Assembly (NCBI GenBank): GCA_951406725.2
Contig: OX597815.1
Coordinates: forward strand, 156,860,001 to 156,924,000
Source: Octopus vulgaris
Taxonomy: Eukaryota
Direction of reading: 5' to 3'
Length of the DNA stretch: 64,000 nt
Part shown: positions 10,977-44,040 of the stretch, one piece after another
Position numbering within the stretch: the stretch's first letter is position 1
Layout of the letters: each line of letters begins with the position of its first letter
The notes under the pieces: generated by a model
The model's input: the letters and a program-made list of their open reading frames with translations, nothing else
Databases searched by the model: none
Told to the model about the DNA's origin: nothing
Translations under genes and position numbers: made by a program

Positions 10977-11028
<52 letters not shown>

Positions 11029-11187
11029 CGGTCGTGTTATTCTTTGCTCCGCAGTGAAAGATTGTTTTTGTGCTGAAAAGTTTGAAAATTTGCTGTTTTG
11101 GTTGTCGAGGCCACTTCTTTTCTGCTATTGCAGCAGAGTTCTGCTGTTTTTCCCCCTTGTTTCAAGGGGGAAGTGACGAAAAAGACA

Positions 11188-12797
11188 TGAATTTGCAACC
11201 AGTCTCCTCCGAGTCGGAGGAAAACGTTGAAAATTTGTTTGAAGGCATGAAGGAGAAAATGCGGGAGGAGGAAGGTAGAAGTAAAGAGACGTCTCACGCG
11301 AGCGTCACAAAAGCAGACGACAATATGTCTGGCGAAGCTAGTAAACGACAAGAAAAGGCAAAAATAAATTTTGCGAGTGCAGCAACTCGCCCCTGTGAAA
11401 ACATCGTTATTAACAAAGAAGGATTAAAGAAGTACCAAAGTTTATTAAAAAAAGAAGGTGATAATGTGAAGTTGTTCCCTCCCAGTGAATTAATTTACGC
11501 GACGGAGAGAAAAACTGTAATTTACAAGACTTATAATGTCAAAAATAAGAAAATTGACTTCGTACAGAGAGAAGCCATTGAAAAATGTTTGAGGCCGATA
11601 TGGCAACAAACAAGTTATATAACAAGGGGTAGTCGCTTCGGCACGGTAGAGGTGCGTTTCCCTAGCGAAGAAATAGCTAGGGAACATTCAACAAGAACGT
11701 TGAAGTCGGAAGAGGTAGTTCTTTTACCATTTTATTTAGGAATGAGAACTAGTAGAATAACGGTTACGGACATTCCGCCCGAAATAGATAAGGACTTCAT
11801 AACAGCAGCGATTCTCTTAGGCAAAGAGGAAGAAATTGCCATTCTTCAGTCTAAAAGATATCGCCCCACAACCTGGTATGGACAGGACTTAGAGCTTGTG
11901 ATCCAAGCGAACCCCTCGGACTTGGAAAAATTGCCAAGCACCCTCACCATTGGAGATACCACCTTGATGGTAATAGTCGAGGGAAGAAAACCGAGATGCT
12001 ATAAATGTGGCGAGAAAGGCCACATACGGTCGAGCTGCAAGAAGACAGCGAAAGAAAATACTACAGAGGCAAGCACGACGCCGAAAACAACTTCACAGCT
12101 AGAAATAGCAGCCACGTCGCGCACCCCAATTGCCGAAATTCAGCCGACAACGGGAGAAAACAACGACAACAACGGTGACAACAACATCAACAACATCCAG
12201 GAGTGGGTCAACGTGGAAGCTTCAAAAGAAGACGGAAACGGAAAAATCCACCCTCTTCGGATACACAGGACTATACTCTGACACAGACAAGCACACCCAC
12301 ACCCACAAATACAGTCGCAAACACACACGTAGCCAAAAAAACACACACACTGGAAAAAGCACACACAACACTCACACACCTACCACAAGCACGCACACAC
12401 CTACAAACACCCACGCTTCTACAAGCACACACACACCCACAAACACACACACACACACCCCTCCACAATCACCTAAAAAAAAAGAAACACCTTCACGGCG
12501 ATAAATAAAAACAATAACCCATTAAGGGAAAAAATTAATTTACTGAAATCGGCGAAAAAATATATCGCAACAGATATAAATAGTATTATATCCGAAAATG
12601 TAGAATTTTATACGATAGATAACGAGGATTATTTTGAAATTAAAAAATCTTTTGCGGAGGACGTAGGCCCGTTACAGATGAACTTTTCAAGCCATCTGTA
12701 CAAGCAATTCGCAAAAAAACTGACCTCGCAAAACACAACACTCACAGACAGAAAAGATGAGGGTGAAACTACACCCTCTCTTCTGTTAAAACAGTAA
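11188..12797 (+). CDS. Tx1 ORF1 (gag-like, zinc knuckle), broken by three apparent 1-nt deletions in the Thr/Pro/His-rich linker
   Basis: First ATG at 11188 (MNLQPV). CYKCGEKGHIRSSC is a CX2CX4HX4C knuckle. The reading continues through frames 12203.. (SFKRRRKRKNPP) and 12130.. (TPPQSPKKK), then returns to the original frame (INKNNNPLREKINLLK...SLLLKQ*) with TAA at 12795-12797. Confidence 0.8.
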
Positions 12798-12816
12798 GTT
12801 TTAAACATTCAACTAA

Positions 12817-15800
12817 ATTTTCACATTCTCGTTTAAACTCGGTTGTATAAATATTCGCGGCCTGGGGTCGTATTGGAAGCAAGGCTACCTCCTTAACGAC
12901 CTTAGGTCGCATCGTTTGGATGTAGTGGTAATTACCGAATCCAGACTGAGTGGGCTGCAGGCTTTTTCGCCCCTTCTAAACGGCTACGAGAAATACGTTT
13001 CTCCCTGTCGACCTGGAGGGGGAGGAGGAGTGGCAGTGCTGGTCAGGAAAAACCTGGATTTAGAGATTAGAACTGTCTTTATAGATCCGGAAGGCAGGTT
13101 GGTCGTTTTGGATGTGACGCACAGCAGTGGTAAAGTGTTCAGGCTGGTCGCTGTCTATGCTCCCTGCGAAGGAAAAGCCGGGCAGAAAGAGTATTTCAAA
13201 AGCCTAGAGAATTTTCTTGGCACGTCGAACACGTTAGTATTGCTTGGTGACTTCAACATAATTTGCGATGCAAGCGTAGATTATGTTGGCTCAAGAAAGA
13301 ATACGAGGGGATTACCTCACCTCAACGATATGCTAAGTCGTTTCGAATTGGCAGATAGATTCAGACTGGACCATCCAGACATTCCAGAGTGGACCTGGGC
13401 AAGAAACGACGGGTCGTCCAGATCTTATATCGATAGAATCATAACTAGAAGGAAAGATAAGAAAATACTTAGCTGTCCACAACACCATATCGTCAGCTAC
13501 AGCGATCACAAATTAGTGACCTGTACGCTCGACATAGATAGCATGTGTAGACGAGGTACCGGCTACTGGAAGCTAAACAAGTCACTATTGGACTGTGAAG
13601 CCTACAGGAATCGGATTAAACAATTAGTAATGAGGGCGTTAACCGGATCCATTATCAACAATAAATGGTGGTACGCCCTGAAAAGAACCATCAAATTTGA
13701 GTCAATTAGGTTTAGCAAAGAACTAGCTAGTGCTAGAAACAAAGTAGAAAAGGAACTAGTTAAGGCTATAGAGGAGGCAATGAGGTCAGGCTGTGCATCG
13801 AAAGTGTTAGCGGCGAGGTTAGCACTAGACCAACATCTCCAAGCTAAACATGAAGGGTGCATTATTAGGGCTAAGATCCGTGCAATGAGACAGGAAGGGA
13901 TCAACGCAGCCGGATGGGCCCGGGTGGTAGAGGGCCAGCGTGGCAACAACTCAACCATTCGATCCTTGACGGGCCCAAATGGTCGATTAGTAAACGAACC
14001 CGAGGAGATGTGCAAGGTGTTTCATGATCATTTCGCCCAGCTATTCGGGAGGAGCGGCGAGCTGGAGCGCGGGGAGAAGCTCGCAGACTTCCTAGCCGGT
14101 TCGCCGCGTCTATCGGGGCCGGACGCGGAATCTTGTGAGGCGCCGATCACAGCCAAAGAAGTCGAGGATATGTTGGCAGAATGCGGCGGGGACAAATCGC
14201 CGGGACTCGATGGTCTGCCTTACGAACTCTATAGTAGCATGCCAGACTTGTTTGGGCACCTACTTGCATGCGTGTACACCAACTGGCAGCAGAACGGGAG
14301 AATTCCTAAGTCTGTGAGCCGAGGGGTGGTAGCGTTGTTAAGAAAGGACCCAAACAAGGGGGATTTAATTGATAATTTCCGGCCTATCACTCTGCTTAAC
14401 GCAGAGTTGAAGATCTTGGCCAAGGTCTTAGCAAAAAGGTTGGCGAGGGTCGAGGGTGAACTTGTTGGCGAGGCGCAAACTTGCGCCATCCCTGGAAGGA
14501 CCATCCACGACAATCTCCACTTTCTACGCTATGCCTTAGAAAGGGTAAATAGGATTCCTGGCAAGGGTGGGGCTATGGTCCACTTGGACCAATCGAAAGC
14601 GTTTGATAGGGTGGACCATCAGTATCTGGCGGCGGTCCTCGCGGCGGCTGGCTTCGGCCCGACCTTCCGCGGATGGATCATCGCTTTATACAGCAACATC
14701 GAATCGGTAGTTCGGGTAAATGGTTTCCTTTCGGAGCCGTTCAGCATTGAACGTTCGGTACGTCAAGGGTGTCCTCTCTCCCCGCTTCTCTACGTTTTGG
14801 CCCTCGAGCCGTTGCTGAGGAGGTTGGAAACTATGAGAGTCACCCCGCAAGATCTAGGGTGCGGAAAGTCAGCTTCGGCGTATGCGGACGACATCACCGT
14901 CATCGTTTCCCGAGTCGAGCACCTACAGTGGGTGGGTGAGGCCTTAAGGGACTACGAAGCGGTGGCAGGAGCGAAAGTCAACCGGGATAAATCGGTCGGC
15001 TTGCAACTCGGCACCTGGAGGGGCAAGTCGATGTCTTCCGACAGCGTCGTAGGACATTGGACGGAAGGACCGGTGAAAATGCTTGGGATCTGGTTAGGTC
15101 CAGATCTCCAGATAGAGAAGAATTGGAGCGAGGTGGCGAGAAAGGTGGCTCTCCTAACTCAGACATGGTCTGAACGGAATCTGTCCTTGAAAGGGAAGGC
15201 GGAGGTTGCAGAAGTGTTTATCGCCTCTGTAATCACTTACCGCCTAACCGTAGTGCCTTGCCCCGATTCGTGGCTGAACAAACTGGAACGCATGCTCTTT
15301 CGCTTTTTGTGGAGGGGCAGCAGACCTCTTGTAAGGCGCTCTATTTGCTGCCAAAAGCCGCTGAACGGTGGGTTAGGGATGTCGTGGCTAAAAATGCGCA
15401 GACATGCGCTCAGGCTTAGGCACCTCTGGATTTACCTGGACGGTGAGCAGGTGTGGTCTCCGTTTGTCAAGCTGTTATTTCCACAGTTCACATCGTTTAA
15501 CGAACTGAACCCATGGATCAAGTGTAGACCGAGGTTGGGCATGTGGCATGCAGAGTGCTATCAGGCACTCGTGCTTCTCTCCCAGTCGGGCAACGCCGGT
15601 GGCGGGGCTACTACCGCGTTCTTCTATAGAGGGTTAGTAGAGTTTAAGTGTGACGACGTCCTAGGAGAAACTCTGGGCTTCGACGAAAATCAACTGGCCA
15701 GCCTGTTCCAAAGAACATTCGGTCCGGGGCCTATGGATAATTACCAAAAGTCCCTGGCCTGGCAATGTTACAGAGGAGCTTTACCGGTTCGAGATAAGCT

Positions 15801-16233
15801 CTTTAGACATGGGTGTGCACCTTCGCCGGTTTGTGCAAGATGTAAGAGGGACAGTGAAACTGTCCTGCACGCGATTGTGCAATGCCCCAAGGTGACTGAA
15901 CTCTGGACTTATGTCGAACACCTGCTGTCGCATTCGAGAAGAGTACAACTGTCGAGCGAATCTGTAATTAAGATAGTTCCGCCGACCTTCCTGAATAGGG
16001 AGGAGCGAGCCTGTTTTCTTTCGGTAGTTGCTATGGCGAAAGAAGTAGTGTGGAAGACGAGAGTAAAAGGAATTGCAACAGGCATGTTTATCTCCAGTCT
16101 CGAGCTAATCGACTTTTTCGTTTTCCACATGAAACGGAAAATAAGGCTGGAGAAGAAATGCCTGTCGCAAAGTGTGTTTCGTAAAAGATGGAAGTCTATA
16201 GCAAGTATGTTGCGAGTGAAAGAACCTATTTAA
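12817..16233 (+). CDS. Tx1 ORF2: AP-endonuclease, reverse transcriptase and C-terminal CCHC domain; uninterrupted, no AUG at the N-terminus
   Basis: Frame is open from 12817 (IFTFSFKLGCINIRGL). APE motifs: ITESRL, VYAP, GDFN, YIDRI, SDHK. RT motifs: KSPGLDG, FRPITLLN, KAFDRVDH, RQGCPLSP, YADD. C-terminal CARCKRDSETVLHAIVQC. Confidence 0.93.
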   Translation: MFTFSFKLGCINIRGLGSYWKQGYLLNDLRSHRLDVVVITESRLSGLQAFSPLLNGYEKYVSPCRPGGGGGVAVLVRKNLDLEIRTVFIDPEGRLVVLDVTHSSGKVFRLVAVYAPCEGKAGQKEYFKSLENFLGTSNTLVLLGDFNIICDASVDYVGSRKNTRGLPHLNDMLSRFELADRFRLDHPDIPEWTWARNDGSSRSYIDRIITRRKDKKILSCPQHHIVSYSDHKLVTCTLDIDSMCRRGTGYWKLNKSLLDCEAYRNRIKQLVMRALTGSIINNKWWYALKRTIKFESIRFSKELASARNKVEKELVKAIEEAMRSGCASKVLAARLALDQHLQAKHEGCIIRAKIRAMRQEGINAAGWARVVEGQRGNNSTIRSLTGPNGRLVNEPEEMCKVFHDHFAQLFGRSGELERGEKLADFLAGSPRLSGPDAESCEAPITAKEVEDMLAECGGDKSPGLDGLPYELYSSMPDLFGHLLACVYTNWQQNGRIPKSVSRGVVALLRKDPNKGDLIDNFRPITLLNAELKILAKVLAKRLARVEGELVGEAQTCAIPGRTIHDNLHFLRYALERVNRIPGKGGAMVHLDQSKAFDRVDHQYLAAVLAAAGFGPTFRGWIIALYSNIESVVRVNGFLSEPFSIERSVRQGCPLSPLLYVLALEPLLRRLETMRVTPQDLGCGKSASAYADDITVIVSRVEHLQWVGEALRDYEAVAGAKVNRDKSVGLQLGTWRGKSMSSDSVVGHWTEGPVKMLGIWLGPDLQIEKNWSEVARKVALLTQTWSERNLSLKGKAEVAEVFIASVITYRLTVVPCPDSWLNKLERMLFRFLWRGSRPLVRRSICCQKPLNGGLGMSWLKMRRHALRLRHLWIYLDGEQVWSPFVKLLFPQFTSFNELNPWIKCRPRLGMWHAECYQALVLLSQSGNAGGGATTAFFYRGLVEFKCDDVLGETLGFDENQLASLFQRTFGPGPMDNYQKSLAWQCYRGALPVRDKLFRHGCAPSPVCARCKRDSETVLHAIVQCPKVTELWTYVEHLLSHSRRVQLSSESVIKIVPPTFLNREERACFLSVVAMAKEVVWKTRVKGIATGMFISSLELIDFFVFHMKRKIRLEKKCLSQSVFRKRWKSIASMLRVKEPI

Positions 16234-16449
16234 TCGAGAATGTAAAAAAGGATAAAGCAAAGTCTTCAGTGTGAGTATGTGGTTTGTGGGGTCGACCGCG
16301 TCCTCCGCTTCATTTTTTGTTAATCACTCATTCTCATTTAATTGTATATATATATTAATTGTTTGTTTATTCATGTTTCGTCTCATTCGATACCCTGACC
16401 CCAACGTTTGTTTTGTCCCCTCTTTTTCTCAACCTTATGGTGAATAAAG

Positions 16450-16486
<37 letters not shown>

Positions 16487-36760: not shown

Positions 36761-37371
36761 ATGTTACTGAATTAGATAACTTGTAAAGATAAATTAACTA
36801 ATTAAAGTAAAAGTAAGAATAGGCAATGATATGATGCCATGATAAATAAACCTAATTATTTTCCATAATTAAACCTTTTAACTAAATATAAATTCCCTAA
36901 GTAAGGGATTCTTAACTAATTATAAATGCACTAAATAGAGGACTCGGATAATCAGAAAAGTTGAATCTTATAATACCAATGTGACGCTAAATTGATATTG
37001 GAGCGTTGTTTGTCGTCGTAGTCTCAAATGAAGGAAATTGTCCTTGCTGTCGTCGATGGTGTAATCTTTGTCTTTGCTATCGTCGTTGTTTTCCTCATCA
37101 TCAACGCTGCTATCAGTCGTCTCATCTGATTGCAATAACAAGCAAATTACCCCAAATTACACATTTCTGCCTATTAAATATGCATTGGCAACAGCCATAT
37201 CAGCTGCTTGCCCATACAAAGTTTAAAGAGTATTCCTGTAACAACGGATCTCCCAACTGTTATTCAAATCTGCCACATGTGACTTTGGCATTCGTCTCCT
37301 AGTCTGGTGTTGAGCTCTCATTCTAGTTCGGCATTAACGTGTATATATATATATACGTTAATATATATAAA

Positions 37372-37405
<34 letters not shown>

Positions 37406-37428
37406 TTTATCGATTCTGGTGAATCAAC

Positions 37429-37465
<37 letters not shown>

Positions 37466-37478
<13 letters not shown>

Positions 37479-37831
37479 GGCAGTTTGTCTGTGTGTGTTT
37501 CTGTGTGTCTGTCAGGTTGTACCCTCACCCTGACCACGGCTTTCAACCGATTCTGATGAAACTTGACACACACATAGCCCAATGTCATAATTCAAAACTA
37601 ACGCAGCGAAAATTTTGAAAAGTTCCCCCAGTTCTGAAAAAAATCGATAAATTCGACATGGGGTCGAGAATCAGAAACACAAACAACAGACTGTCTAGGG
37701 GGCGCAACTCGACCTTTTTAACTAAAAAAATTTACCATCATTTTTTTTTCCATTTTTTGGCTATAACTCTCTAAAAATGCTTTATAGTTATTTCCCTTAC
37801 AAACCCGAGCAACGCCGGGTGATACTGCTAG
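37466..37831 (+). mobile_element. Non-autonomous Helitron (~366 bp) of the same family as the adjacent autonomous element
   Basis: The 5' ~245 bp match the 5' end of the autonomous Helitron (reverse complement of ~43743-43988). The 3' end has the hairpin CCCGAGCAACGCCGGG and terminates CTAG|T. The expected 5' TC reads as TA within the microsatellite. Confidence 0.85.
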
Positions 37832-37971
37832 TATATATATATATATATACTAGCAGCATAGCCCGGCGTTGCCCGGGTCTGTAAGAGCCCCTAGTAGGCA
37901 ACGACTAATCCCAATGTAGTCCTTTCCCTCCAGGGAACGAAGGTGCATGTGGACGTTGCAATGTCTTGTCT

Positions 37972-40900
37972 TCACTGGAATACTTCTGTATATACGATGT
38001 TCCTAGCTGTCCGTTTGGGCGAAAACATGAAAACATCATTGCGCCTCCCAACGCGTGAACAGCCCACGTAGAGTTGACCGTGGGCGAAGCACTGTTCGCC
38101 CAAATGTAACCCAGCGACTTGTAGCGTTTGGCCTTGGGATTTATTGATGGACATTGCGAAGCAGAGTTTAACAGGAAACTGAGAACGCCTGAAGTGGATT
38201 GGTAGGTCAGCGCCCGACGGTTGAAGGTGCATCCGTGGAATGAAGACGTCCTCTCCCTTCCCACAACCGGTAAGTATTGTGGCCGTTATTAAATGTGGTG
38301 CCAAATGTTTCACAACCAAACGTGTGCCGTTGCACTGTTTAGGTGGAACCAAATTCCTGATGAGCATAATGGGCGCACCGACTTTTAACTTCAGGATGTG
38401 TGGTGGCAGGCCTGGCGGTTCAAGTGAATTCAGGAATTCAACAGGATAATCGGCAAGCTGGGCGGGGTCTGCTGTCCTATCTATAGATTTGTAGATGTGG
38501 ACATCACCAGGAATAGCTTCAAGTAGCTGGATATTGATGGAGTTGACGGTTGTATTTTTGGGTGCGAGAATAGCTCTGCCTGCCAGCCATTTTAGGTCGC
38601 GTAAATTGTTTTGTAGGTCGTGGAAGACAGCGTCCCGGAGGATAGCAGGGGTGTCGACAATGGTGCAAAGTGAGTCCAATTGAACGTAGCCATCCGCATC
38701 AGACAGCATCCTATTTTCACCGAGCGATAAGAGGTCCCTGGAGAATGCAGCGGATCCGCTGTCACCAATTAACTGCGCGCACATGTTAGCTTGGAGGTGC
38801 AAGGGCCGCACATGTGCCCAAAGAGCTGACGACTTAAGGCACGCGCGCACGGCATCGGCACGGGTTCCTTTTGGAATAACAGGTAGAGTCTGCCTGAAGT
38901 CTCCTGAAAGAAGTAAAGTTAATCCTCCCATGGGGGCCGTAGAGTCTCTGATGTCTTGCAGGGACCTGTCCAGTGCCTCAAGGGCGCCTTTGTGTGCCAT
39001 AGTGCACTCGTCCCATACGATGAGTTTGCATCTGCGCAGAATGTCGGCCTGTTCTGAGTTCTTGGCGATGTTGCAGATAGGTGACTCGGACTTTGCCAGA
39101 TCGAGCGGGAGTCTGAAGGCAGAGTGGGCGGTTCTGCCACCCGGAAGCAACGTGGCCGCGATACCAGAGGAAGCTACAGCCAGGGCAATGTCCGTGTTGT
39201 GTCTGACCTCTGCCAGAATTAGTTTAGTGACGAAGGTTTTGCCAGTGCCGCCGGGTGCATCAAGGAAGAAAATCCCCCCACGTTGCTGTCTGACAGAGTC
39301 TACGATGGTGTTGTAGGCTATGCGCTGGTCTGGAAGCAGCCGTGGTTCATTATCTTGGACGTAATGGTGCAGTTCCTCAATGCAGTAGGAAGTTTCGCGT
39401 AACAATTCAACAGACATAACATTGGCGTGTTCACGTGTGGGTGGTGGAAGGCCGTACTCTGTTAAAGCAGACCCACCCATATCGATGACAGCGTCTTCGA
39501 GTTGAATGAGCGCAAAATTGTAAATGAAGTTGGTGAACGTGATCTCGGCGGAAGGGCAGTGTTGCTGAGCCGTACGTAAGAAGTCGTGCGACATGTCATC
39601 CCTGTATTTCATCCAGAGACTTAGTGGATCACTAAGCTGACATTTTTGAAGAAGGATTGCGAAAAGATGTCGTAGGGCCGAATGCGTTTGCAGTAAAGCA
39701 CCCTCTGCCATCGTGGCGTCCCACTGGGAGTCATCCTCTAGAAGGCCAAGTCTCATACATGCTTCCCTGAAGGTGTCGCACAGAACCCCATTGACGGTAC
39801 GTATATTGGCGAAACCTGTTGGACCAGTGACCTCATGTAGAAGGAGACGGAGGTAGAAGCATTCTTGTTGGTTTGGCGGGATGTTGTAAACTCGACCCAG
39901 GCAGGAGTCAAACTTGACGCCTGGGAAGCTTTCGACGTTTTTGCCGGATTTCCGTCGAACCCAGGTGTTTTTAGACCACACGAAGTACGATGGGACCTGT
40001 GGGTACAAAAGCGTTCGAGCGAAGTCATCACGTTGGCATAATTTGAAGAAACCAGTCAACGTTGTGTCTTTAGGGCTGGTGGCTATCTGCACAGCACTTT
40101 GCTCTGTGAAGTAAATCCGCTGTCCATTTTCCAAGTGTACAGCAAGCTGCACCACAGCCGGGTGTCTCTGATGGAGCGGGAAGCCGTAAATGCGCCAAAA
40201 CGCTTCGTTGCTGCTGAGGTACCGGCCAGCCAAGTAGTTGGACACTTCGTCGCGACTGGTGGTCCTCTGGATGCTGAACATGGCAGCATCGCTGCCTTTG
40301 TTGATATATTTGCAGACATATTGTATTGACCTGATGGAACTGCAGAACTCAACGTTGACGTGGGCTTTGAATATCTTCGACAGGAGAGGACAGTAGGGGA
40401 CAATGTAGCTCTTGTCCACTTGATGTCGCCCAACCGTAATCGTGCGGCCTCCATTGGCTGGACTCCTTCGTTTGTACAGCGGATACCCATCGCCGCCTGT
40501 TTGAGTCTCCAAAGTGAACCGTTTAGGGAATCCCTTTGAGCAGGCTAATCCGTTTTTGTAGCATGGTGTGTTGGCGTAATTTGGTCCACAGGGCCCGTGT
40601 ACCATGGTAGTGCGGACAATTTCGTAGAGTCCGGGGTCCTCATCGGGGTCAGGAATCTCGGCGGAAATGAATTTGTCAATGTCATTAGTCTCGATTTTAT
40701 GAGTGAGCCAAATTAAGATGTGAGCATGTGGCAAGCCCCTCTTTTGCCACTCGACCGAAAACATGTGGCACCTGACATGCCCGAAAATCTGACCCTTAAC
40801 TATCAAATCCTTCATTTTGCCCAAATTCAGACGGAAAACCCAAGCAACGATGTCGTGTCGATGGGTGTGAGATTGACCCGGGAGGCGTTCGCGAGTGATT

Positions 40901-42841
40901 TCGTCGCAGCTGGGATTGCACGTGTAGGTGATAAAGAGGTCCGGCCGGCCGTAAATGCGCACGTAGGTCAAGGCGTCTTGGGTCCTTTCACGCATATATC
41001 GCGGTCCTCCCGTGAAGGTGGAGGGTAGAATGCATGGCTTGCCGATGTTGCGAGGGTCATTTTCTTGTTGCAAACCGTCACGGAGATGAATGTAGGAGTC
41101 GGAGCGAAGTTTGGTCTGATTAAGTTTAATGTATAGCAGCCTTTCCGATTCCATTTTTGCGGCCATGTCGACGGCGAACTGGTTGAATAGCTGACGACAA
41201 CGGGGCAATAAGTTGAACTCACCCTCCCTGACCATGAACCGGTATGAGTAGAACGCCCTGTAGGAAACCGTCTTTGATGCCGCAGTAGTTTGATTGAAGG
41301 GCTGCCGTAAAGGAATTCCGAAGTGGTAGCCGTCTTCCCCATAAGGGAAAAGCAATGGATACTGAAGCGCGTCATAAGATCTGTGAGTCTTGCTGATCCT
41401 GTGTAGGTTGTTACCACGGGAGGAGATGATTATGTCACGGCTGTTGTGTTGCTCTCCGTGTATGACTGCGGCAATTTCGTTGCACGCAGGTGCGTTGAAA
41501 CGGCGTTCGTGCTCCCCGTGGGGTCGTTTATCAGCATCAATGACAACGGTGAAGTTTGGAGATGGAGCACTGTCCAAGGCATATCTGAAGCTGCAGACGT
41601 AGCTGTTGATATCATGAAGCATGGTTTGGAGACGGAGAAGAATGTCTTTGCGGGGAACATAGCTTGTACCCGGTATTATTCCAAGGCGTGCATCAACCTG
41701 GTGGTTGTAGTCGGCAATGAAGTATATTTGGAGGAAAGAAGACTGCTGAATCTCGTCTGGCAGAAGTGACCCAATAAGATGGTAGACCTGTCCCTGCACT
41801 TTGAAAGTAGGCATCCAGCCTTCTCTGGGAGGAATTTTGGCCCCGAAAGAGGTCATTTGGAATGAGCAGTTGTACTTTCGAATTATTTCAAGGAATTGTG
41901 ACGAATCGGGGGTTAAACCCGCCGCGAGATCCTTCAGTGGTTGAGGTGGTTCCCGTAGGGGTGGCAGGTCCACTTTGCCACCAGAGCAGCACAAACCAGG
42001 TGGCTCTCCGGGCCATTTCTTGGCTTTGCAAAACTGGCATACAATTGTCATTGACCCTATCTTGATGTCGTCACGCAAGGAGAAGTTAATTGTGGCGTCG
42101 TAGTTGAATGCTAGTGACAACCAGAAAGCGGGGGCAGGGGTACGTACACCACGAATGATATCCCGACGTTTGTTGATACTCTCAAGTCGAGTGCACCGTG
42201 CCTCAGCAGATTCAGATGCACGTGCGACAGCGGTAGCAGTGGCATCCCTTGAAAGCCTTTCAGCTCTCGCCTCAGCACCCTCTGAAGCCCTAGCAGAAGC
42301 AGTGCTAATGGCATGTCTGGATGTCCGAATAGTCCGTTGGTGTGGAGTTTCGGCAGATCGAGCCCTGGCTGTTTGCGGCGTTAGCAGCTTGGCGAGCTCT
42401 CCTCTGTTGAGGTGTTTTGGCAGCTTTGGCCATGGCTTTGTTTGCGGCGTCAGCACATTGGCGAGTTCTCCTCTGCTGTGAGGTTTCGACAGATCGTGTC
42501 CTGGCGGTGCTAGTGGCGTTAGCCGCATTCCGAATGGCCCTTTGTTCGGGGTTCTCGCGAGCTCTGCGGATGGAAGCACAGTAAGAAGCCCGCATGTTTT
42601 GGCTGGACTGTTGCTCTTTCGTCAACCTCGAGCGGAGGGAAGATCTGTACGCTGCGACCCTTGCAAGTCGGGTAGAACGGTCGCTAGTAGTTTCAGATGC
42701 CTGAGCAGCGGCATAACGGGAAGCTGTTTGCGAGAGGCGCAAGGCGGTTTCCTCGTGGGTCTCGCGTGCCCTTCTAGCCCTAGCAGCCGATGCCTTGGCC
42801 GTCCGAGGGCTGAGGAGGGTCCTTCTCTTCTTGGGTGGCAT
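37972..42841 (-). CDS. Helitron RepHel transposase (STPR repeats, Zn motif, HUH-Y2 Rep, PIF1-like SF1 helicase); intronless, one 2-nt frameshift near 42370
   Basis: ATG at 42841 (MPPKKRR, NLS-like). Motifs: CQFCKAKKWPGEPPGLCCSGG, VEWQKRGLPHAHILIW (HUH), YVCKYINK (Y2), DAPGGTGKT (Walker A), IVWDECTM (Walker B), GDFRQTLPV, SINKSQGQTL, HGQLYVGCSR. Restoring 2 nt joins the 42305-43111 and 37972-42579 ORFs into ~1623 aa. Confidence 0.93.
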
Positions 42842-42963
42842 TTTGGTGGATAGCAATGTGTTTGGCAAAGGTGTAATAAAAAGGAACACGTGGGGTAAGT
42901 ATTTTGGTGGATAGCAATGTGTTTGGTAAAGGTGTAATAAAAAGGAGCTCGTGGGGTAAGTAT
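42842..42963. repeat. ~60-bp tandem duplication immediately upstream of the RepHel ATG
   Basis: TTTTGGTGGATAGCAATGTGTTTGG(C/T)AAAGGTGTAATAAAAAGGA...GTGGGGTAAGTA occurs twice. Confidence 0.9.
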
Positions 42964-43985
42964 CCGAAAATGTATAAAAATGTACAAAAACGGCCAAAAA
43001 GCTGGCAGCAATGTGAGTGACAACAACGAAAAAGTCAAAAGTGATCAAACTGAACAAACGAAAGGAAAAGTTTTTTGATGCACACGACAAAAGTGGTTTA
43101 TAATAAACCAAGAGTTTGCAAGTAGCGTCCGAGGACCGTTAGGGTACGTCAAAAATTGAAGGTAAAACGTTTGGGGTGGTAGTTATAAAGAAAGTTTAAA
43201 CAAAAAAAGTATTCGAATAACTTGCGGCTGCAGAAGCTATTAGCAGAAGTGGCGGTGTTGGGGGTAAAGTCTCGAATGTAATTTCTTCCTGGTAGGAATT
43301 GGTTGGATCGAATTATCGATAGCTAAAAAGGTCAAGTTGCGTCCCCTAGACAGTCTGGTTTGTGTTTAATACACAAATTTGTTTGCTATGTGTGCCACAT
43401 ATGATTAAATTAACCGATTTTTTCCAATAATGTATCCTATTGGAATAAAAAGGGCTATATAGCTCCTTGGAGCAGACATGATGCTCGTTGTGAAAAAAAA
43501 AAGATTCCTGCCAATTTGTGAAAGATATTGTCGAAAATATGTCATCTTGAATTTGAACGCGATTTCCCAAAATGGCATGATTTTATCGATTGTTTCTGAT
43601 GGTAAGGTATTGCATGGAAAACTAAAGTCAGAATTGAGTTTCTTAGGGTAACATTAAGCTTCACCATGAGTTTGGTGAAAATCGATTGCAAGTCGTGAAA
43701 ACTACCATAGATAATGCGTTGCATAAAAAAAGCTTAGATTCTCGAGTTGCGTCCCCTAGACAGTCTGTGGTTCATGTTTATGATTCTCGACCCCATGTCG
43801 AATTTATCAATTTTTTTCAGAACTGGAGGAACTTTTCAAAATTTTCGCTGCGTTAGTTTTGAATTATGACATTGGGCTATGTGTGTGTCAAGTTTCATCA
43901 GAATCGGTTGAAAGCCGTGGTCAGGGTGAGGGTACGAGAAAACAGACACACAGAAGCACGCACAGACAAACTGCCGTTTATATAT

Positions 43986-44040
<55 letters not shown>

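Follow-up and report, generated by a model that had tools for sequence, protein, structure and literature searches.

Nine STPR repeats in the RepHel transposase of an Octopus vulgaris Helitron: a candidate reader of the element's own left end

Among the canonical (HLE1) Helitrons, Helraiser/Helibat1 (7lcc) has TC...hairpin-CTAG ends, inserts at A|T without target duplication, and encodes a Cys motif, a Rep domain (HUH, two Tyr) and a Pif1 helicase in one frame. Its transposase requires a double-stranded donor (PMC5876387), and the N-terminal 489 residues are necessary for the binding and cleavage of single-stranded DNA (PMC4778049). The second system of relevance here is the STPR domain of FMBP-1 in Bombyx mori, the silkworm (PF21107; 5d23, 5d2q and 5d2s), which has four 23-aa repeats, covers 4 bp per helix and reads DNA mainly by shape (PMC4856987). 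STPRs have already been described in Helitrons, as HELIANO (2024) found them to be stable and almost exclusive to HLE1 elements and listed them among the domains of separate open reading frames; the available parts of the article and its preprint propose no role for them (PMC11417382). Insertion into microsatellites is a feature of other DNA transposons. Coates and colleagues reportedly described in 2010 a lepidopteran Helitron-like family that disrupts (GAAA)n microsatellites. MuTAnT is a Mutator element in TA repeats, of which 218 copies were examined (PMC4486113), compared with two non-independent copies of the Helitron presented here. No report of Helitrons targeting TA repeats was encountered in the available text of the literature searched.

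The stretch of 64,000 bp analysed here (hereafter the window) contains a full-length HLE1 Helitron of 6,139 bp, which shares the ends, the insertion mode and the domain order of Helraiser (Table 1). The 5' TC of the element lies at 43988 behind an A, and the 3' CTAG at 37850 in front of a T, so that the junctions read A|TC...CTAG|T, in agreement with insertion at A|T without target duplication, although a duplication would be indistinguishable from the array itself inside (TA)n. The features that define HLE1 elements are present, including the 5' TC terminus (43988-43987, minus strand; unreadable in the small copy), the HUH motif, the two tyrosines and Pif1 in a RepHel that lacks an APE endonuclease (Pfam Exo_endo_phos gave no match in the protein), and a 3' CTRR behind a palindrome of 16-20 nt, here a 16-nt palindrome, an 8-nt spacer and CTAG in both copies. 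The stems predicted for the 3' ends have z scores of -0.31 (large copy) and -2.01 (small copy). The small copy is a non-autonomous derivative that shows, over its first ~245 nt, 94% identity with the left end of the large element; the two lie tail to tail, 18 bp apart, in a single TA cluster, and a search of the window for other members of the family found none. Read depth at the element ends far exceeds that of the interior in 4/4 runs, as expected with many short derivatives, although depth does not give copy number. Furthermore, contigs from X10 and X12 link the 5' end (43988) to the element's own 5' region at 43678 and 43593 via four extra letters, which would represent derivatives, nested or in tandem, whose TC run is longer. 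Two internal repetitions were also observed, a 61-bp tandem duplication (42840-42963) that terminates at the RepHel start codon and a motif of ~40-50 bp present twice in the 5' region (43320-43367 and 43742-43780).

Table 1. Features of the Helitron locus (positions in the window).
Feature	Position	Strand	Basis or remark
Full-length HLE1 Helitron	37850..43988	-	sequence; reads over all 30 bins in 4/4 runs
Left end: TC, AT-rich 12-mer, degenerate TG-rich tract ~15-50 nt inside, period 2/4	43935..43988	-	candidate STPR site (inferred)
RepHel start, basic MPPKKRR segment, half repeat	42764..42841	-	same start in many homologues
Nine 23-aa STPR repeats	42145..42763	-	aa 27-233 (frame translated with X at the break)
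2-nt deletion in repeat 6	42369..42370	-	in the window copy, absent from the contigs spanning it best
Cys motif (zinc-finger-like), Rep, Pif1 helicase	37972..42144	-	Pfam, PDB matches, motifs
Right end: 16-nt GC palindrome, 8-nt spacer, CTAG	37850..37877	-	predicted 5-bp stem; z -0.31, by energy alone at chance level
(TA)9 separating the two tail-to-tail 3' ends	37832..37849	.	sequence
Non-autonomous derivative, 366 bp	37466..37831	+	right end with hairpin and CTAG; TA in place of the 5' TC
(TA)n array in the 5' flank of the large element, then TAGA and GA repeats	43989..44034	.	sequence
Compound TA-microsatellite cluster in the 5' flank of the small element	37342..37465	.	sequence

The RepHel frame (start 42841, end 37972, minus strand) contains a single break near 42370 and no further stops, and retains the HUH motif (aa 703-710), the two-Tyr motif (aa 842), Walker A (aa 1198) and Walker B (aa 1275). 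Its downstream part matches the Pfam families Helitron_like_N (2e-50) and PIF1 (7e-62) and the Helraiser structure 7lcc (E 3e-258 over aa 103-1447), and the N-terminal MPPKKRR segment is likely a nuclear localisation signal. The best protein match bears a cuttlefish name (55% over the 500 residues searched), and further matches include octopus proteins. The 2-nt deletion that the first-pass annotation had repaired in the N-terminus is independently confirmed by sequencing reads, as contigs of 4/4 runs examined (of 20) contain two extra letters behind 42369; by depth, these are present in all of X16, 380/432 of X14, about half of X12 and a minority of X10. The family frame is thus intact and the break is specific to the window copy, which rules out a programmed or family-wide frameshift. 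The 6,139-bp Helitron belongs to a multi-copy family, and this copy has been inactivated by the frameshift. In the frame between 37972 and 42369, 12 of the 15 listed differences between reads and copy (from part of 148 listed differences) alter an amino acid, as expected of neutral decay after insertion.

Upstream of the catalytic domains, the repaired frame encodes nine exact 23-aa units (ETHEE, ETTSD, LTKEQ, ENPEQ, ETSQQ, KTPQQ, ETPHQ, EGAEA and ESAEA), which start at 42763, 42694, 42625, 42556, 42487, 42418, 42351, 42282 and 42213 in the register given by the first-pass annotation. The BLOSUM autocorrelation of the RepHel N-terminus at lag 23 is 1.41, compared with at most 0.53 across 2000 shuffles. 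The R..R motif ascribed to most repeats is likewise present, with arginine at both positions 6 and 9 in 7/9 units, and the STPR signature is well represented (Glu1 in 7/9, Thr/Ser2 in 7/9, Arg9 in 8/9); a read variant at 42418 gives repeat 6 a Glu start. The profile comparison that the first-pass annotation had suggested yielded Pfam STPRs (PF21107) matches on either side of the break (E 5e-11 and 3.4e-9; 43.3 and 37.4 bits against a curated cut-off of 27). FMBP-1 (5d23) was the sole PDB sequence match of the upstream half (E 6e-4). A predicted model of residues 1-157, which covers repeats 1-6 only (mean pLDDT 91), consists of helices of 20-21 residues joined by linkers of 2-3 residues, and among 48,161 chains its best fold match is again 5d23 (Z 7.2, rmsd 1.4 A, 64/64 residues; next Z 5.6), although a Z of 7.2 is modest and in the usual range for helical models and the structure predictor may have seen 5d23. 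A Foldseek search with the N-terminal model gave no match. The repeats are STPRs, and in this family they are fused in frame to RepHel. They share with FMBP-1 the 23-aa period, the E1, T/S2 and R9 positions and a predicted 21-residue helix with a short linker, and differ from it in number (nine versus four), in the fusion to a transposase, in the replacement of most residues at positions M13, S14, Y16, A17 and L21, and in carrying arginine at position 21 rather than 20. In Helraiser, the first ~100 residues are basic and loosely repeated and align to the STPR part of the clade profile, in contrast to the nine strict units found here; with the window N-terminus alone as query, this stretch of Helraiser was not matched.

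Among the best 120 of 985 RepHel homologues, 94 contain at least one STPR repeat (range 1-16, median 4 among the 94), including 64 of the 67 with complete-looking N-termini, although the homologue query itself held about three repeats and hence favours repeat-bearing matches. The repeat profile found no matches in 107 shuffled N-termini and recovered 8/9 of the window units. At least eight repeats are present in 13 and at least nine in nine of these 120 proteins, with a maximum of 16. An array of nine is thus not unusual in this set, and the description of the array as expanded does not hold. A search for longer proteins with the N-terminal piece alone returned nothing at E 1e-5 among 5,032 candidates, which is weak evidence. 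In the window element and in the 94 homologues, the STPRs are located in RepHel itself rather than in separate reading frames as listed by HELIANO (PMC11417382). The window element is an ordinary HLE1 Helitron; the feature is real, and the kind of element is already known. Four homologues with particularly long arrays (P0041, P0087, P0060 and P0078, with 16, 13, 11 and 10 units, some near-identical inside the array) are better suited than the window locus to tests of length effects.

The occurrence of STPR arrays in many hosts across the RepHel clade points to a core function. Since Helraiser needs a double-stranded donor, an arm that binds dsDNA would have a task at the left end, and our preferred reading, to which we assign a probability of about 0.5 and which corresponds to the second option named by the first-pass annotation, is that the STPR arm binds the double-stranded left end of its own element to start transposition. 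The STPR helices would wrap this DNA and hold the left end while the Rep domain nicks it. Each helix would sit in the major groove over ~4 bp, amounting to ~36 bp for the whole arm, and would thereby cover the AT-rich 5' end and the adjacent TG-rich tract; the span of nine helices is similar to the length of the TG tract, a match that was noted post hoc. In the large copy this tract has a lag-4 match of 0.62 (p 0.008, 500 shuffles) and a lag-2 match of 0.58, i.e. it is nearly as 2-periodic as 4-periodic, and the respective values in the small copy are 0.75 (p 0.002) and 0.69. In metagenome loci, among the matches listed, a TG tract with 4-bp spacing lies behind 7 of the 34 sense 5'-end candidates, compared with 1/66 controls (p 0.002), and of these seven tracts five are 4-periodic and two mainly TG dinucleotide. 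A (CTGT)n tract has also been described near the 5' end of lepidopteran Hel-2 (PMC4344730). Counting against the left end as binding site, the silkworm STPR is weak on (acac)3 (3,879 nM), (acag)3 (6,110 nM) and (gaca)3 (5,423 nM), ~20-35x weaker than on (atat)3 (PMC4856987), so that the TG tract would be a poor site if the silkworm specificity had carried over.

Related elements in metagenome data provide information on target choice. A scan for the same 3' hairpin followed by CTAG gave at least 62 matches in at least 61 loci (L001-L061), of which we dropped one duplicate and 13 matches in loci with a GC content of at least 50% (mostly without T after CTAG, although the two in L012 and the one in L055 look real), leaving 48 junctions; three of these beginning with TCTA were omitted from the target profile, leaving 45. 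These ends are tied to the clade of the window element by the shared hairpin, and in L009 and L060 additionally by a RepHel that is 53% identical, with its N-terminus cut off. Among the matches listed, T follows CTAG (+1) in 43/45 junctions, and ATA(A/T) is present at +7 or +8 in 31/45, compared with 43/710 control AT sites (6%); this motif was selected once the data had been seen, and 16 ends come from a single family and are non-independent. The targets of that 16-copy family have A7 in 13/16, T8 in 12/16 and A9 in 13/16 of the listed copies, and A-T-A is likewise present at +7 to +9 of its own left end. Targets of this class of Helitrons have, 7-8 nt past A|T, an ATA(A/T) block that resembles Helitron left ends. 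In L009 and L038, two of the 48 listed junctions, and in the dropped locus L012, CTAG runs straight into what appears to be another left end, which would reflect either copies in tandem or the integration of one copy at the A|TC of a second. Viral contigs yielded no pattern matches and no related loci, and the sole match to the 5' motif in a bacterial genome proved to be unrelated sequence.

If the arm reads the left end, target choice would follow likeness to that end, i.e. A|T plus ATA(A/T) 7-8 nt downstream, via the same left-end-reading surface. Under this reading (TA)n would be hit often in this genome because it is abundant and agrees with 10 of the first 12 bases of the family's 5' end, and not through a longer array homing on microsatellites; for the rest of the window, toy models that reward likeness to the family's 5' end give expected (TA)n shares of 29-69%. 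Further observations weigh against the left-end reading. Both window copies do lie in (TA)n, and the +7 phase of the target motif, which accounts for 22/45 of the listed junctions, is out of phase with (TA)n, compared with 9/45 in the +8 phase, which is in phase. Furthermore, L015 and L041 have a left end like that of the window family, yet +7 targets, so that family-specific mimicry is not clean and a strict phase match of family left end to targets is weakened.

A possible but improbable alternative is that the arm is a low-specificity binder of AT-rich dsDNA, which adds affinity and scanning on donor and target and whose repeat number drifts by slippage without effect on specificity. The range of 1-16 repeats fits this explanation, as do the counts of 2, 8, 10 and 13 in four proteins labelled with one species (both among the best homologues). 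Likewise, strong conservation across the arrays is confined to structural and phosphate-contact positions (E1, T/S2, R9 and R21), and Helraiser favours AT-rich DNA within ~20 bp, mostly on the 3' side (PMC4778049). Against this explanation, the groove-side residues are uniform inside many arrays and different between families, and a tract with 4-bp spacing recurs at left ends.

The proposal of the first-pass annotation that the STPR arm binds (TA)n targets and tethers the transposase to them, resulting in microsatellite-directed transposition of the window family, appears unlikely to us. Its observation that both Helitrons are inserted at A|T in (TA)n stands with two corrections: A|T is readable at the large element, with TA arrays at 43989-44034 and 37832-37849, but the small copy has TA in place of TC, which leaves its 5' junction unreadable, and both copies share one cluster and are not independent loci. 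Elsewhere in the window, 474 of 6,025 AT sites (7.9%) are located in (TA)5+ arrays, or 12.8% when weighted by the target profile of the relatives; against this background, two of two copies that share one cluster are suggestive and no more. Among the listed relatives with the same hairpin, (TA)4 or longer is present at 1/48 junctions, compared with 140/16,791 AT sites of the same loci, and in the above-mentioned contigs from two runs the 5' end is linked to the 5' region of the element itself instead of (TA)n. Enrichment of the window family in (TA)n may well exist; enrichment alone would not implicate the STPR arm.

The DNA-binding data for the silkworm protein bear on tethering in both directions. 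Both (atat)n and (tata)n are within the best nine of 135 units, with Kd values for three units of 175 nM and 340 nM, respectively (PMC4856987, Table 1). Depending on length, the affinity of the same protein for (atac)n equals or exceeds that for (atat)n; it binds (atac)n, (atat)n, (aata)n, (tatc)n and (tata)n each at roughly 50-350 nM, with shape as the main feature read (PMC4856987). In FMBP-1, thymine methyls are held by M13, S14, Y16, A17 and L21 (PMC4856987), and the corresponding Met13, Ser14, Tyr16, Ala17 and Leu21 are found in 0, 1, 1, 1 and 0 of the nine window repeats, respectively. The consensus ATNTWTNTA, which the first-pass annotation had carried over from FMBP-1, is thus not transferable. 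In favour of tethering, the groove side of the window repeats also departs from the Helitron STPR consensus of Arg14 (70%) and Arg16 (76%), as 7/9 repeats have Ala14, a conservative stand-in for Ser14; arrays of this type make up 11/75, the best match from cuttlefish among them. More broadly, Helitron STPR arms might act as modular DNA readers of variable length, with 4 bp per helix and family specificity set by the groove-side residues, in which case the Ala14-type nine-repeat arm of this mollusc-related family would read (TA)n and direct the Helitron into microsatellites as a safe harbour, a scheme that we regard as doubtful.

That the flanking (TA)n arrays arose by growth or spread once the elements had inserted, with the TA-rich 5' end and an AT-rich site as seeds, and are hence uninformative on targeting, is very improbable as the main story, although such growth can coexist with binding of the left end. 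In its favour, the small copy has TA for its 5' TC, as would result from invasion of the end by the array, and the window holds 42 (TA)5+ arrays totalling 1,141 bp. Against it, the cluster reaches ~120 bp past the small copy and compound repeats extend beyond the large one, suggesting an older microsatellite, and the 3' ends themselves lack a TA seed. Two further elements in the window are associated with simple repeats. A near full-length LINE (11026-16454, +) encodes an ORF1 with a zinc knuckle and, in an intact frame of 1,138 aa, APE, RT and zf-RVT, is bordered by (TC)n on both sides, and in this respect resembles Kibi of the Tx1 clade, which inserts into (TC)n (PMC4494074), and a repeat with inverted termini (343-694) lies beside TA arrays.

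Recognition of the double-stranded left end by Helitron transposases, and their selection of targets beyond A|T, appear unsettled in the available text of the literature cited here. With 1-16 repeats and groove-side residues that differ by family, STPR arms provide a direct handle on both binding and insertion. If the arm were to set targets, it would offer a natural route to retargeting a rolling-circle gene-transfer vector. If, as we prefer, the arm reads the left end only, the window locus would be an ordinary broken Helitron, with two useful by-products: the STPRs are part of RepHel itself, and targets have an ATA(A/T) block like that of left ends.
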